From Escherichia coli (GTDB lineage: Bacteria > Pseudomonadota > Gammaproteobacteria > Enterobacterales > Enterobacteriaceae), in assembly GCF_041248615.1 (NCBI RefSeq), contig NZ_CP158426.1: a stretch of DNA of 64,000 nucleotides. One strand, given 5' to 3'. Position numbers: made by a program. Positions 38,001 through 41,000 of this stretch are shown piece after piece (position 1 is the first letter of the stretch; each line of letters starts with the position of its first letter).

Positions 38001-41000
38001 CAGCCAGGTTTTACCGTCGAGTGTCAGTGTCTGTTTGCCTTCCTCTACGACGGTGCCGACACCCGTTGGGGTGAGAAAACCACCAAGTCCAGCTCCGCCA
38101 CAGCGAATTTGCTCGATTAGCGTACCTTGCGGCACCAGAACGACGTCCATCTCACCAGATATCATGCGCCGACCTGTTTCCGGGTTGGTGCCGATATGTG
38201 AAGCAATCACTTTGCGGACTCGACCATTGACGATGAGCGGACCGATGCCGGTATCAACAAACGCGGTATCATTGGCTATCAATGTCAGGTCGCGAACACC
38301 TGATTCCAGTAATGCTTCAACCAGGCGGGATGGAGTGCCAATCCCCATAAATCCGCCCACCATGATGGTCATGCCGTCACGAAAGAAGCCGGTGGCATCT
38401 TGTAATGTCATCAATTTTGTTTTCATTTTTTATCCCTCTTGCATACACCGTTGTGGGTACAGTCAGGGAATAGCAAGGGGAGTGCCAGAATGAGATTATT
38501 GGGTTTTGTTATTTAACTAATTGAATATGAAGGGATAAATTGGATGAGGATTTATAAGGAGAATGAGCGGCTATGCAGAAAATTGCGCACTGTGCAAATT
38601 TCTGCATAGCAAGTTTTGGCGTTATACATCCGCCGGATCGATACCGTATTCCTGGAGTTTATACATCAATGCACGGCGACTGATGCCCAGCATTAAAGCA
38701 GTGCGGGTTCGGTTTCCTTCTTGTTGTTCCAGCACTTCCATAATGATGCGTTTTTCGACGCGTTTAATTTCCTCTTTTAAATTACGCTCTCCGACAGGGG
38801 ATGTTTTTACCTCGCCAGCATTACAGACTGGCTGACGAATCTGCGGCGGAAGATCCTCAGAAAAAATGATCGGGCCTGAGTTCATCACGACGGCGCGTTC
38901 AATAACGTTGGAAAGCTCTCGAATATTTCCCGGCCATGACCAGGCGGTAAGCAGTGACATTGCCATCGGATCGATGTCGATAATATCGCGCTGATTCTCA
39001 CTACTGAATTTTTGCAAAAAGTGATTAGCTAACAGGGAAATATCTTCCCGGCGATCGCGCAGAGGCGGCAGTATTAAATGAATAACGTTAAGGCGATAAA
39101 AGAGATCTTCACGGAAGGTGCCTTCTTTTACCATTGCCTGCAAGTCACGGTTGGTGGCAGCAATGATGCGGATATCAACTTTTATGGTCTGATGGCCGCC
39201 AATCCGTTCAAATTCCCGTTCCTGCAGAATGCGTAGTAATTTGGCTTGCAGTACGAGCGGCATTTCGCCAATTTCGTCGAGGAGCAGAGTACCTTCGTTG
39301 GCACGTTCAAATAATCCCTGACGCAAGGTTTGTGCACCAGTAAATGCACCTTTTTCATGACCAAACAGTTCACTTTCGAGCAACGATTCCGGCAGCGCCG
39401 CGCAGTTGACTTTAATGAACGGCCCCTTTGCCCGCCGCGAATTGTAGTGAATCGCTCTGGCAATCAACTCTTTCCCGGTGCCGCTTTCACCGCTAATCAA
39501 GACGCTGGCCTGAGAAAGGGCAATTTTGGCGGTGTCTTTGCAGATGTCCATCATCGCCGGGCTGTTGGTGAGAATGTGCCCCCATTGCCAGCTAGTGCTC
39601 AGTGCCTGGTGCAGATGGCGGATCTCTTTTTTCATTGACTGGAGTTGTAAAGCGCGCTGAACGATTAAATTCAACTCATCGAGATCAAACGGTTTGATAA
39701 CATAGTCGAAGGCCCCGCAGCGTAGCGCTTCGACGGCGGTTTCCACTTCAGCATAGGCCGTCATCAGAATAACGGGGGTCCGTGTCTCATGGCTGCGCAT
39801 CTCCTTGAGTGCCTTGATGCCGTCCATCTCTGGCATGCGGATATCCATCAACACCACGTCAGGGTGAATATCAGCAAACAGGTGTAATGCTGTGCGTCCG
39901 TTGTTCGCACAATGTGTTTCGAAACCTTGTAGTGCAAAAGCGGTGCTCAGCATACGGCGAACATTATCTTCATCATCCACAATAAGGATGCGATTAATAG
40001 CAGTCATACAGTCTGATTTCCCTGCGGGTTGATCGGTAAAATAAGCGTGAAGGTTGCGCCGTAGCCCGGCAAACTGGCGACGCGAATATCACCCTGATGG
40101 GCATTAATGATGCGTTGACTTAACGCCAGACCAAGCCCGGTTCCTGAGGCTTTGGTGGTGAAAAAGGGATCGAAGATCTTTTTTTGCAGCGAGAGATCAA
40201 TGCCACAGCCGTTGTCCTCTATCGAAATGGCCTGTTGTGAGTCGCTGTATTGCCAGGTTTGAATGCGAATTTTCCCTCGTGCGCTGATAGCCTGGACGGC
40301 ATTGATCAGGATATTCAGTAGTACCTGTTTGAGCAGTTCACGATCGGCGTTAATCGGGTTTAATTCATTATCCAGTTCGCTTATGAAGTCGACCCGCGCT
40401 TGTACGCCGGCGGTTTGTACCAGTACCAGAGTTTCTTCAACCAATGCATTGAGACTGACTTGTTGCCATTGACTGTGGCGTGGACGTGAAAATTCGAGCA
40501 ATTGCTGAATAACTTTGTTAATTGAATCGATTTCTTTGAGTACTACGGACAGATATTCCTGATGTATTAGGTCGCTGGTTTGTTGGCGCAAGATCTGTAC
40601 ATAACCACGAATAGCCGTTAGCGGATTACGTACTTCATGCGCGACGCCAGCCATCAGCTCACCCAGTGTGGCGAGGCGTTCTGCTTGCGCCATGCGGCGC
40701 TGGGTTTCTTTGCGGGCAGTTAAATCAGAGAAAATCACCAAAGCACCTATCATTTCACCATGCGTGTTATGAATACGACTGGTAGTGACACTGAGTTCAA
40801 TGGTGCGGTCACGGCCTGGAAAACTGATCTCCAGCGCTACATGTTCGGTGCCATGTTCCAGCGTATCCAGTACTGGACTGTAGAACTGAGTATTGTCGAA
40901 CAACATGGAGTAAGGCTGCCCTACCAGTTCATGACGTTGATAGCCAGTGATGACTTCTGCTGCCGGGTTCATGGTGGTTACATCACCCTGGCGGTCAATG

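Follow-up and report, generated by a model that had tools for sequence, protein, structure and literature searches.

It is on the minus strand of the window (the whole 64-kb stretch of Escherichia coli DNA that was analysed) where the ato locus is found, with its six genes intact and in the order atoS, atoC, atoD, atoA, atoE, and atoB. The identities of these genes were given by full-length matches to NCBIfam equivalog models, with AtoA, AtoE, and AtoB each exceeding the respective cut-off. The sensor histidine kinase gene atoS (40004..41842) encodes 612 aa when read from the upstream GTG and matches the AtoS equivalog NF008468 over profile positions 1–615 of 616 with 995 bits (cut-off 646). 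It overlaps by 4 nt with atoC (38622..40007), the gene of a σ54-dependent response regulator or bacterial enhancer-binding protein of 461 aa, which aligns with the AtoC equivalog NF008469 from 1 to 461 of 461 with 1004 bits. Downstream follow atoD (37764..38426), encoding the 220-aa α subunit of acetate CoA-transferase (NF007394 equivalog, 445 bits, 1–219 of 219); atoA (37114..37764), encoding the 216-aa CoA-transferase β subunit (TIGR02428, 305 bits vs. cut-off 244); atoE (35795..37117), encoding a short-chain fatty acid transporter of 440 aa (TIGR00366, 747 bits vs. cut-off 576); and atoB (34580..35764), encoding an acetyl-CoA acetyltransferase of 394 aa (TIGR01930, 492 bits vs. cut-off 241, 1–385 of 385).

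The AtoC protein of the window contains D55 and H73, the Walker A motif GESGTGK at 173, the GAFTGA motif at 220, a DEI motif at 244, and the helix-turn-helix (HTH) motif ISRRAL at 442. Judging from the sequence, with six intact reading frames and the D55, Walker A, GAFTGA, and HTH features of AtoC all preserved, the ato system of this strain is probably functional. The strain thus carries an intact K-12-type switch for the use of acetoacetate and short-chain fatty acids, a fact of limited importance beyond annotation, and the ato locus is absent from ~28% of complete E. coli genomes.

The gap between the atoC stop codon and the atoD start spans exactly 195 bp (38427..38621) and contains, on the minus strand, both motifs described in the first-pass annotation, namely a σ54-type −24/−12 element and, farther upstream, a near-perfect palindrome. 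The first of them, read there as TGGCAC-N5-TTGCT, is indeed present at 38487..38472, with the correction that it belongs to the minus strand; the complete element CTGGCAC-TCCCC-TTGCT occupies 38472..38488, with its GG at 38486/38485 and its GC at 38474/38473, exactly 10 bp apart as σ54 promoters require. Its 16-mer TGGCACTCCCCTTGCT is the sole exact match to TGGCACNNNNNTTGCW (TGGCAC-N5-TTGCW) in the 64-kb window, where 0.15 matches were expected from shuffles. Since at least one exact match appeared in 15 of 100 shuffled windows, the motif by itself is only modestly improbable, and its significance is carried by position, orientation, and conservation. On the strand of atoD, the GG precedes the ATG by 60 nt, an offset that stays within 55–65 nt across 51 loci; among the 80 atoD loci compared, TGGCAY-N5-TTGCW was found at −56..−66 from the atoD ATG in every atoC-adjacent locus except one Affinibrenneria locus, and CTGGCAY-N5-TTGCW is invariant across the 26-genome alignment, called A2. 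A 1-mismatch σ54-like site elsewhere in the window (15403..15418) was discarded, being intragenic, antisense, and no more than chance predicts, and no σ70-like promoter was found in the atoC–atoD gap. In K-12, the 17-mer CTGGCACTCCCCTTGCT is the σ54 ChIP-seq site OS21, and the corresponding table flags the promoter as experimentally confirmed in EcoCyc (PMC4591121); in addition, gSELEX with the RpoN holoenzyme gave a peak within the atoC>atoD spacer (PMC8743547), and PMC3118216, citing Matta et al. 2007, describes ato expression as σ54-dependent.

The second motif, a 41-bp palindrome at 38570..38610, was also confirmed and likewise has to be placed on the minus strand; its distal arm (38610..38591) is GCTATGCAGAAATTTGCACA, its proximal arm (38589..38570) is GCTATGCAGAAAATTGCGCA on the other strand, and its central base is 38590. 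Its arms complement each other at 18 of 20 pairs, which makes it the top-scoring 20+20 palindrome of the window, and the best palindrome in each of 100 first-order Markov windows scored 14–17, never 18. From its proximal edge (38570) to the T of TGGCAC (38487) there are 82 bp, so that the earlier figure of about 90 bp can stand if it is taken from edge to edge; the dyad centre is 104.5 bp away from the GG. The published AtoC sites GCTATGCAGAAATTTGCACA (−184..−165 from the atoD start) and GCTATGCAGAAAATTGCGCA (−163..−144) are the arms of this palindrome with matching offsets, and both 20-mers were ChIP-positive for AtoC in vivo in K-12 (PMC3118216 Table 5). Earlier work, as summarised in PMC3118216, attributes to the palindrome both acetoacetate inducibility and AtoC binding. 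The proposal that these motifs constitute the σ54 promoter of atoDAEB and the enhancer of an NtrC-family activator, AtoC, is supported by the gene identities, by the published AtoC arms, and by OS21. An origin of both motifs by chance, with no role in this strain, is practically negligible as an explanation: the frequency of the −24/−12 element in shuffled windows speaks for it, but the palindrome stands above all 100 simulations, the two elements co-occur in the correct place and orientation, they equal K-12 sites that experiments have verified, and their conservation extends over more than ten genera. Chance occurrence was ruled out on these grounds, and nothing contradicts the reading of promoter plus enhancer.

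The comparison across genera delimits an invariant enhancer core, TTGCACAGTGCGCAA (38583..38597, minus strand), with the consensus TTGC.CA.T..GCAA, whose columns do not vary in alignment A2. The core TTGCNCA-N(1–2)-TRYGCAA was found in every locus with an AtoC at least 70% identical to that of the window, and a looser form of it in 47 of the 51 loci with the σ54 promoter. The distance between the dyad and the GG falls into classes of ~98, 104–108, 118–120, 127–129, 136–141, and 149 bp, that is, it shifts by steps of roughly one helical turn; these classes follow clades, and therefore they amount to only about six independent observations. This comparative footprint provides a cleaner AtoC box, which could help to reassess the numerous weak “additional AtoC targets” whose prediction relied on one half-site, and could also aid builders of acetoacetate biosensors from Pato.

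Of the 20 palindrome pairs, 12 have changed on both sides across genera, and the observed values were reached by none of 500 shuffles. A dyad of the form TGCA-N6-TGCA (TGYGCAA-N4-YTGCAYA) makes up each single arm in the E. coli, Citrobacter, and Photorhabdus groups, as seen in part by direct reading of the sequences, which suggests that each 20-bp arm may be the site of one AtoC dimer with the form TGYGCAA-N4-YTGCAYA. The recognition helix of AtoC, LGISRRALMYKLQEY, is invariant, in keeping with the invariant core, but from genus to genus the outer arms show symmetric changes and the helix shows none; co-variation of this helix with the outer arms was thus rejected and cannot explain the arm changes. 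A simple pairing of one helix with one fixed half-site leaves these symmetric changes partly unexplained. One way out would be that no selection acts on the outer-arm symmetry and that hairpin-templated (quasi-palindrome) mutation preserves it by copying changes between the arms, with only the 15-bp core being a real AtoC site. The invariance of the core next to outer arms that differ between genera and yet stay complementary would fit with this, as would the invariant recognition helix and mismatches without strand asymmetry. Against it, two 20-bp AtoC sites have been published and both 20-mers are ChIP-positive (PMC3118216), each arm is a dyad in the three groups mentioned above, as one dimer per arm predicts, and the first HTH helix of AtoC differs by clade (NRTRTALM, NRTHTALE, NRTHSALQ, NRTRAAML), leaving room for co-evolution with the protein. 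Taking both sides together, we consider the mutational origin of the outer symmetry unlikely.

The palindrome starts 11 nt past the atoC stop codon, and as RNA the region gives a fold of −30 kcal/mol (z = −5), with compensatory changes maintaining its symmetry over all 41 bp. It could be, or also be, a hairpin that the atoSC transcript forms at its 3′ end, working as terminator, 3′-end stabiliser, or insulator against read-through into atoDAEB, and the C-rich, G-poor spacer that comes after it is rut-like. The same idea would accommodate those lineages in which atoC is followed by a distinct hairpin or terminator (Morganella, Leminorella, Enterobacillus, and Yersinia) or is missing upstream; they keep the AtoC box and lose the global palindrome (~10–14 of 20 pairs). 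However, no T-run follows the stem, which is continued instead by CGCTCATTCTCC, and the terminator scan calls none on the gap's minus strand, so that an intrinsic (rho-independent) terminator was rejected despite the folding stem. The non-Watson–Crick cells of the sense strand also failed to support selection on RNA structure, since they comprise 25 G·U, 24 A·C, and 25 others, and an RNA stem should tolerate G·U far more than A·C; near-equal numbers are the pattern expected without selection at the RNA level. Moreover, the enhancer element travels with atoD and not with atoC: Limnobaculum, Budvicia, and Photorhabdus keep the box in front of atoD with no atoC preceding it, and that of Morganella comes after a canonical terminator distinct from it. 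AtoC binding already explains the site, and the correlation of the long hairpin with clade comes from few independent lineages. An RNA hairpin at the atoSC 3′ end is therefore quite improbable in our estimation. Similarly improbable is a second role of the AtoC enhancer, restricted to the Escherichia-to-Buttiauxella clade and needing the full 41-bp hairpin-forming symmetry, for instance at the atoSC 3′ end or, together with the C-rich/G-poor tract, in the insulation of atoDAEB. If true, this second role would explain why the outer arms co-vary in spite of an invariant AtoC recognition helix, and why the box is kept and the long palindrome lost in lineages with a separate terminator or without an upstream atoC.

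Between the AtoC enhancer and the promoter lies a spacer (38527..38569, minus strand) whose sense strand is rich in C and poor in G (15 C and 1 G among 43 nt) and whose sequence is not conserved; over 26 lineages, its composition is 34% C and 10% G. Adjacent to it is an IHF-like box, ATTCAATTAGTTA (38514..38526, minus strand), matching WATCAANNNNTTR at 12 of 13 positions. Matches of equal quality number 61 in the window vs. 51 expected, which is not significant by count. The box is nevertheless a conserved block in alignment A2, and in ~25 loci of Escherichia, Citrobacter, Edwardsiella, Raoultella, and Buttiauxella it lies 38–41 bp upstream of TGGC on the same strand; in distant lineages it is found 50–63 bp upstream, with perfect matches at 51–63 bp in Morganella, Serratia, and Limnobaculum. 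Matta and colleagues reportedly found in 2007 that IHF binds and is required for induction, and in the accessible literature on an IHF requirement at the ato promoter we found no statement repeating it. The conserved position, together with that 2007 study, suggests a role of IHF at the box predicted in the window.

Transcription is predicted to start at 38461..38464 on the minus strand. The numbering −146..−107, reportedly that of Matta et al. 2007, would place the start at ~38464. The rule of a start 19 bp downstream of the motif centre points to 38461, which is 35 nt 5′ of the atoD ATG, the distance also given in the published table (PMC4591121). The 5′-UTR contains a predicted small hairpin, GUACCC-ACAAC-GG(U)GUAU (38443..38460, minus strand), which coincides with a conserved block of A2; 87% of its cells are paired vs. 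21–56% in slid controls, three of its six pairs have changed on both sides, and Buttiauxella shows a two-sided change to CUCC/GGAG. A search of Rfam at E ≤ 1 matched nothing in the gap, this hairpin included. The Shine–Dalgarno sequence AGAGGGA (38433..38439, minus strand), read directly, lies 6 nt 5′ of the atoD ATG, and its GG.A is conserved in A2.

We are thus nearly certain that this region is the control region of atoDAEB, formed by a σ54 promoter, an upstream AtoC enhancer, and a putative IHF-type bend site between them. Its elements are identical to those of K-12, statistically unusual, and, like their spacing, conserved from genus to genus; the six genes are intact. Most likely, the σ54 holoenzyme would sit on CTGGCAC-N5-TTGCT (38488..38472) as a closed complex unable to open alone, until AtoS senses acetoacetate and phosphorylates AtoC on D55. 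AtoC would then assemble on the 41-bp palindrome (38570..38610), centred 104.5 bp upstream of the −24 GG, and the AT-rich IHF-like box (38526..38514) would favour a DNA loop bringing the AAA+ ring of AtoC into contact with σ54 through its GAFTGA loop. ATP hydrolysis would open the promoter, and transcription would proceed from ~35–38 nt 5′ of the atoD ATG through atoD, atoA, atoE, and atoB. For the identical elements of K-12, it is established in the literature that AtoC binds both arms, that σ54 occupies the 17-mer, that acetoacetate induces, and that atoS and atoC are needed; in particular, a K-12 Pato-GFP reporter was induced by acetoacetate and was unresponsive in atoS, atoC, and atoSC knockouts (PMC7618054). 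The checks suggested in the first-pass annotation thus already exist for this sequence in K-12.

On the NtrC model TIGR01818, AtoC scores 477 bits, below the cut-off of 559, and is for this reason a paralogue of NtrC and not NtrC itself. The NtrC-dependent promoters glnAp2 and glnHp2 are the textbook architecture of an enhancer-binding protein working with σ54, and they share with ato the −24/−12 promoter, a dyad TGCA-containing activator site more than 100 bp upstream, and DNA looping, which at glnHp2 is IHF-assisted; NtrC and AtoC are both built from receiver, AAA+ (GAFTGA), and Fis-type HTH domains. In contrast, the AtoC site is a single contiguous 41-bp palindrome with the core TTGC-N7-GCAA, whereas NtrC uses two separated 17-bp sites, TGCACC-N5-GGTGCA, and the signal is acetoacetate through AtoS in the ato case and nitrogen status in NtrC systems. 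The systems Pu/XylR, nifH/NifA, and zraP/ZraR have the same order of enhancer, AT-rich bend site, and −24/−12 element as ato, also with the bend site ~40–60 bp upstream of the −24 element, and differ from it in activator and signal. The predicted IHF box of ato has one mismatch to the consensus, and it is positional conservation that backs it.

The ato control region is already known biology, as the first-pass annotation had stated, its elements being equal to K-12 sites that were already characterised; since every base of them agrees with the K-12 elements mapped by experiment, the finding is real but ordinary. The palindrome, the IHF-like box, the −24/−12 element, the 5′-UTR hairpin, and the Shine–Dalgarno sequence are all base-identical to those of K-12 Pato, with equal offsets from the atoD start. 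Over the 195-bp gap, the window differs from K-12 MG1655 by six single bases, at 38620, 38547, 38507, 38504, 38503, and 38468, and no conserved block is affected. The first of these lies just past the atoC stop, and at the last, just downstream of the −12 element, the C of the window is the cross-genus consensus, in contrast to the G of K-12.

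The gap between atoC and atoD (38427..38621) is exactly the non-coding stretch from the stop codon of the 461-aa AtoC ORF (38622..40007, minus strand) to the ATG at 38426 of the 220-aa AtoD ORF (37764..38426, minus strand). The -24/-12 element and the 41-bp palindrome claimed there by the first-pass annotation are both present, with orientation as the sole correction, given that both are read on the minus strand. The palindrome, GCTATGCAGAAATTTGCACA-G-TGCGCAATTTTCTGCATAGC (38610..38570, 18/20 pairs complementary), is the highest-scoring 20+20 palindrome of the whole 64 kb, and the best palindrome in 100 windows simulated with a first-order Markov model never exceeded 17/20. 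The -24/-12 element reads TGGCAC-TCCCC-TTGCT (38487..38472), and for the exact pattern TGGCACNNNNNTTGCW the 64 kb hold a single match vs. 0.15 expected; one-mismatch matches are rarer than expected (2 vs. 4 by chance), and therefore the motif by itself is weak evidence, the palindrome being much stronger. The two elements lie 82 bp apart edge to edge, with 104.5 bp from the dyad centre (38590) to the GG of the -24 part (38486/38485). A one-mismatch sigma54-like motif, GGGCACGCGCCTTGCT, on the plus strand at 15403..15418, within and antisense to a 761-aa ORF, falls inside the chance expectation of about 4 per window.

The interpretation of these elements as a sigma54 promoter of atoDAEB and an AtoC enhancer was right, and they are identical to the experimentally characterised K-12 ones. 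The AtoC sites positive in vivo, GCTATGCAGAAATTTGCACA (-184..-165 from the atoD start) and, on the other strand, GCTATGCAGAAAATTGCGCA (-163..-144) (PMC3118216, Table 5), correspond, counted from the ATG at 38426, exactly to 38610..38591 and 38589..38570. According to the summary in PMC3118216 of Matta et al. 2007, the 40-bp palindrome governs acetoacetate inducibility and AtoC binding, the binding detected by ChIP is acetoacetate-inducible, and expression is sigma54-dependent. The window 17-mer at 38488..38472 is identical to the motif CTGGCACTCCCCTTGCT of the sigma54 ChIP-seq site OS21 upstream of atoD, whose start is predicted at 35 bp from the gene and which is flagged as experimentally confirmed in EcoCyc (PMC4591121, Table 1); the same rule applied to the window predicts a start at 38461, 35 nt before the atoD ATG. 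Genomic SELEX with the RpoN holoenzyme also gave a peak within the atoC>atoD spacer (PMC8743547), and acetoacetate induced a GFP reporter of the K-12 atoDAEB promoter in three strains that were atoSC+, with no response in atoS, atoC, and atoSC knockouts (PMC7618054). The finding is a real, textbook promoter and enhancer, already known, as the earlier description of known biology had it, and our comparison contributes minor additions: an invariant core, the position of an IHF-like box, spacing classes, a 5'-UTR hairpin showing compensatory changes, and a C-rich/G-poor spacer.

All ato genes are intact in this strain. The minus-strand order is AtoS, AtoC, gap, AtoD, AtoA, AtoE, and AtoB, assigned by NCBIfam equivalog models, each protein being full length and exceeding its curated cut-off, and AtoC retains the phospho-acceptor D55, Walker A GESGTGK, Walker B DEI, the sigma54-contact motif GAFTGA, and the C-terminal HTH. 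Neighbouring genes overlap at atoS/atoC (4 nt, 40004..40007), atoD/atoA (1 nt, 37764), and atoA/atoE (4 nt, 37114..37117), an arrangement consistent with translational coupling. Over the 451 bp spanning the gap, identity is 100% to strain K_EC180 and 98.7% to K-12 MG1655. Of 5426 complete E. coli genomes, 3924 carry the region and about 28% lack it; one of the matches is plasmid-borne. The window, K-12, and one diverged strain align without differences in the palindrome, -24/-12 element, 5'-UTR, and intervening AT-rich block, and the few SNPs are located in the spacer. At 38468, the fourth base past the -12 TTGCT, most genera and the window share a C (ATTCCC), and K-12 MG1655 is the outlier with G (ATTGCC). 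In E. coli KH_005 (locus L003, 3001..3901), an IS1 adjoins a truncated atoC; the enhancer, promoter, and atoDAEB are missing, and a DUF1175 fragment, yfaA, and gyrA follow past the IS1.

An AtoD scan over one genome per species gave 80 loci for comparison. TGGCAY-N5-TTGCW occupies -56..-66 relative to the atoD ATG in every locus with an AtoC orthologue directly upstream (Escherichia, Citrobacter, Edwardsiella, Atlantibacter, Raoultella, Entomohabitans, Symbiopectobacterium, Serratia, Buttiauxella, Enterobacillus, Morganella, Leminorella, Yersinia, and Hafnia), except in Affinibrenneria (L050). Wherever AtoC identity is at least 70%, the 41-bp palindrome is recognisable (15-19/20 pairs) and the core TTGCNCA-N(1-2)-TRYGCAA is present in all loci. 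Sequence conservation in an alignment of 26 atoC-atoD gaps is confined to five blocks: the palindrome, in which the columns TTGC.CA.T..GCAA never vary; ATTCAAT.A.TTAA; CTGGCAY-N5-TTGCW; part of the 5'-UTR; and the Shine-Dalgarno sequence. Spacings between dyad and GG group at about 98, 104-108, 118-120, 127-129, 136-141, and 149 bp, with the intervals between empty; a face-of-helix constraint would give such clusters, yet the classes track clades. Good -24/-12 elements, among them TGGCACGTATCTTGCA and TGGCATGGTTCTTGCA, are found before CoA-transferase genes of Firmicutes too (Bacillus, Neobacillus, and Bacillota and Clostridia MAGs; L055, L056, L071, L081, L082), at -64..-94 from the atoD homologue, an indication that the pathway is under sigma54 control well past Enterobacterales.

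Given that the palindrome begins 11 nt past the atoC stop and is foldable as RNA (-30 kcal/mol, z = -5 for a 91-nt region), we also considered whether it acts as a terminator or 3' hairpin after atoC, a role disfavoured by the lack of a T-run after the stem and of any call in a terminator scan. The dyad symmetry is strongly kept, with 90% of cells paired and 12/20 pairs altered on both sides, values reached by 0/500 shuffles and compared with 29-56% in slid controls. However, the non-Watson-Crick cells of the sense strand split into 25 G.U, 24 A.C, and 25 other, which is the neutral expectation; a stem selected as RNA would show an excess of G.U. The outer arms (38570..38610; alignment columns 41-82) vary between genera with complementarity kept, as in E. 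coli (GCTATGCAG...CTGCATAGC), Atlantibacter (GCCAGGCAAAG...CTTTGCCTGG), the Serratia group (CTGAGAAGGAA...TTCCTTCTCA), and Buttiauxella (CCTGACAAAAA...TTTTTGTCAGG), and the AtoC recognition helix LGISRRALMYKLQEY is invariant, clade variation being found only in the helix before it. The long palindrome is lost in lineages where a separate hairpin follows atoC or where atoC is not adjacent. These tests speak against an RNA role and do not separate the other explanations of outer-arm symmetry, which may come from co-evolution with less conserved HTH parts, from hairpin-templated concerted mutation, or from a second structural role of the palindrome. A Watson-Crick pair is rare at palindrome position 18/24, seen in only 3 of the 25 distinct palindrome sequences, and 21 of them have A.C or G.T there; therefore, one core half is always TGCACA and the other TGCGCA.

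In Morganella (L041, L043, L044, L046; about -290..-175 from atoD), atoC is followed by a canonical hairpin-plus-T-run terminator and then, downstream, by a Citrobacter-like AtoC box, and in Limnobaculum, Budvicia, and Photorhabdus (L038, L040, L047, L049), the box GAAACAAAA.GTGCACACCTGTGCAA-N4-TTGCACA and the sigma54 promoter are kept ahead of atoD, whose upstream 2.5 kb contain no atoC; therefore, the element is part of the atoD promoter. The right-hand arm in these lineages is a clean dyad, TGTGCAA-N4-TTGCACA, a form shared by the E. coli arms (TGCGCAA-TTTT-CTGCATA), as would be expected if each 20-bp arm bound one AtoC dimer.

Between palindrome and promoter lies an IHF-like match, ATTCAATTAGTTA (38526..38514, minus strand), although the count of such matches in the window is not significant. 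It recurs on the same strand, 38-41 bp from TGGC, in about 25 loci of five genera, and in distant lineages equally good or perfect matches lie at 50-63 bp. Matta and colleagues reportedly stated IHF as required, and their footprint is said to be numbered -146..-107. The spacer 3' of the palindrome (38527..38569, minus strand) has 15 C and 1 G on the sense strand, and over 26 lineages 34% C vs. 10% G, the sequence itself not being conserved; this composition resembles a Rho utilisation tract, a candidate for acting on atoSC read-through. In the atoD leader, close to its 5' end, a small hairpin, GUACCC-ACAAC-GG(U)GUAU (38443..38460, minus strand), had no match in an Rfam search and is conserved across genera (87% of cells paired, 3/6 pairs altered on both sides), with compensatory changes such as those to CUCC/GGAG in Buttiauxella and from C-G to U-A in Edwardsiella; it might stabilise the 5' end.
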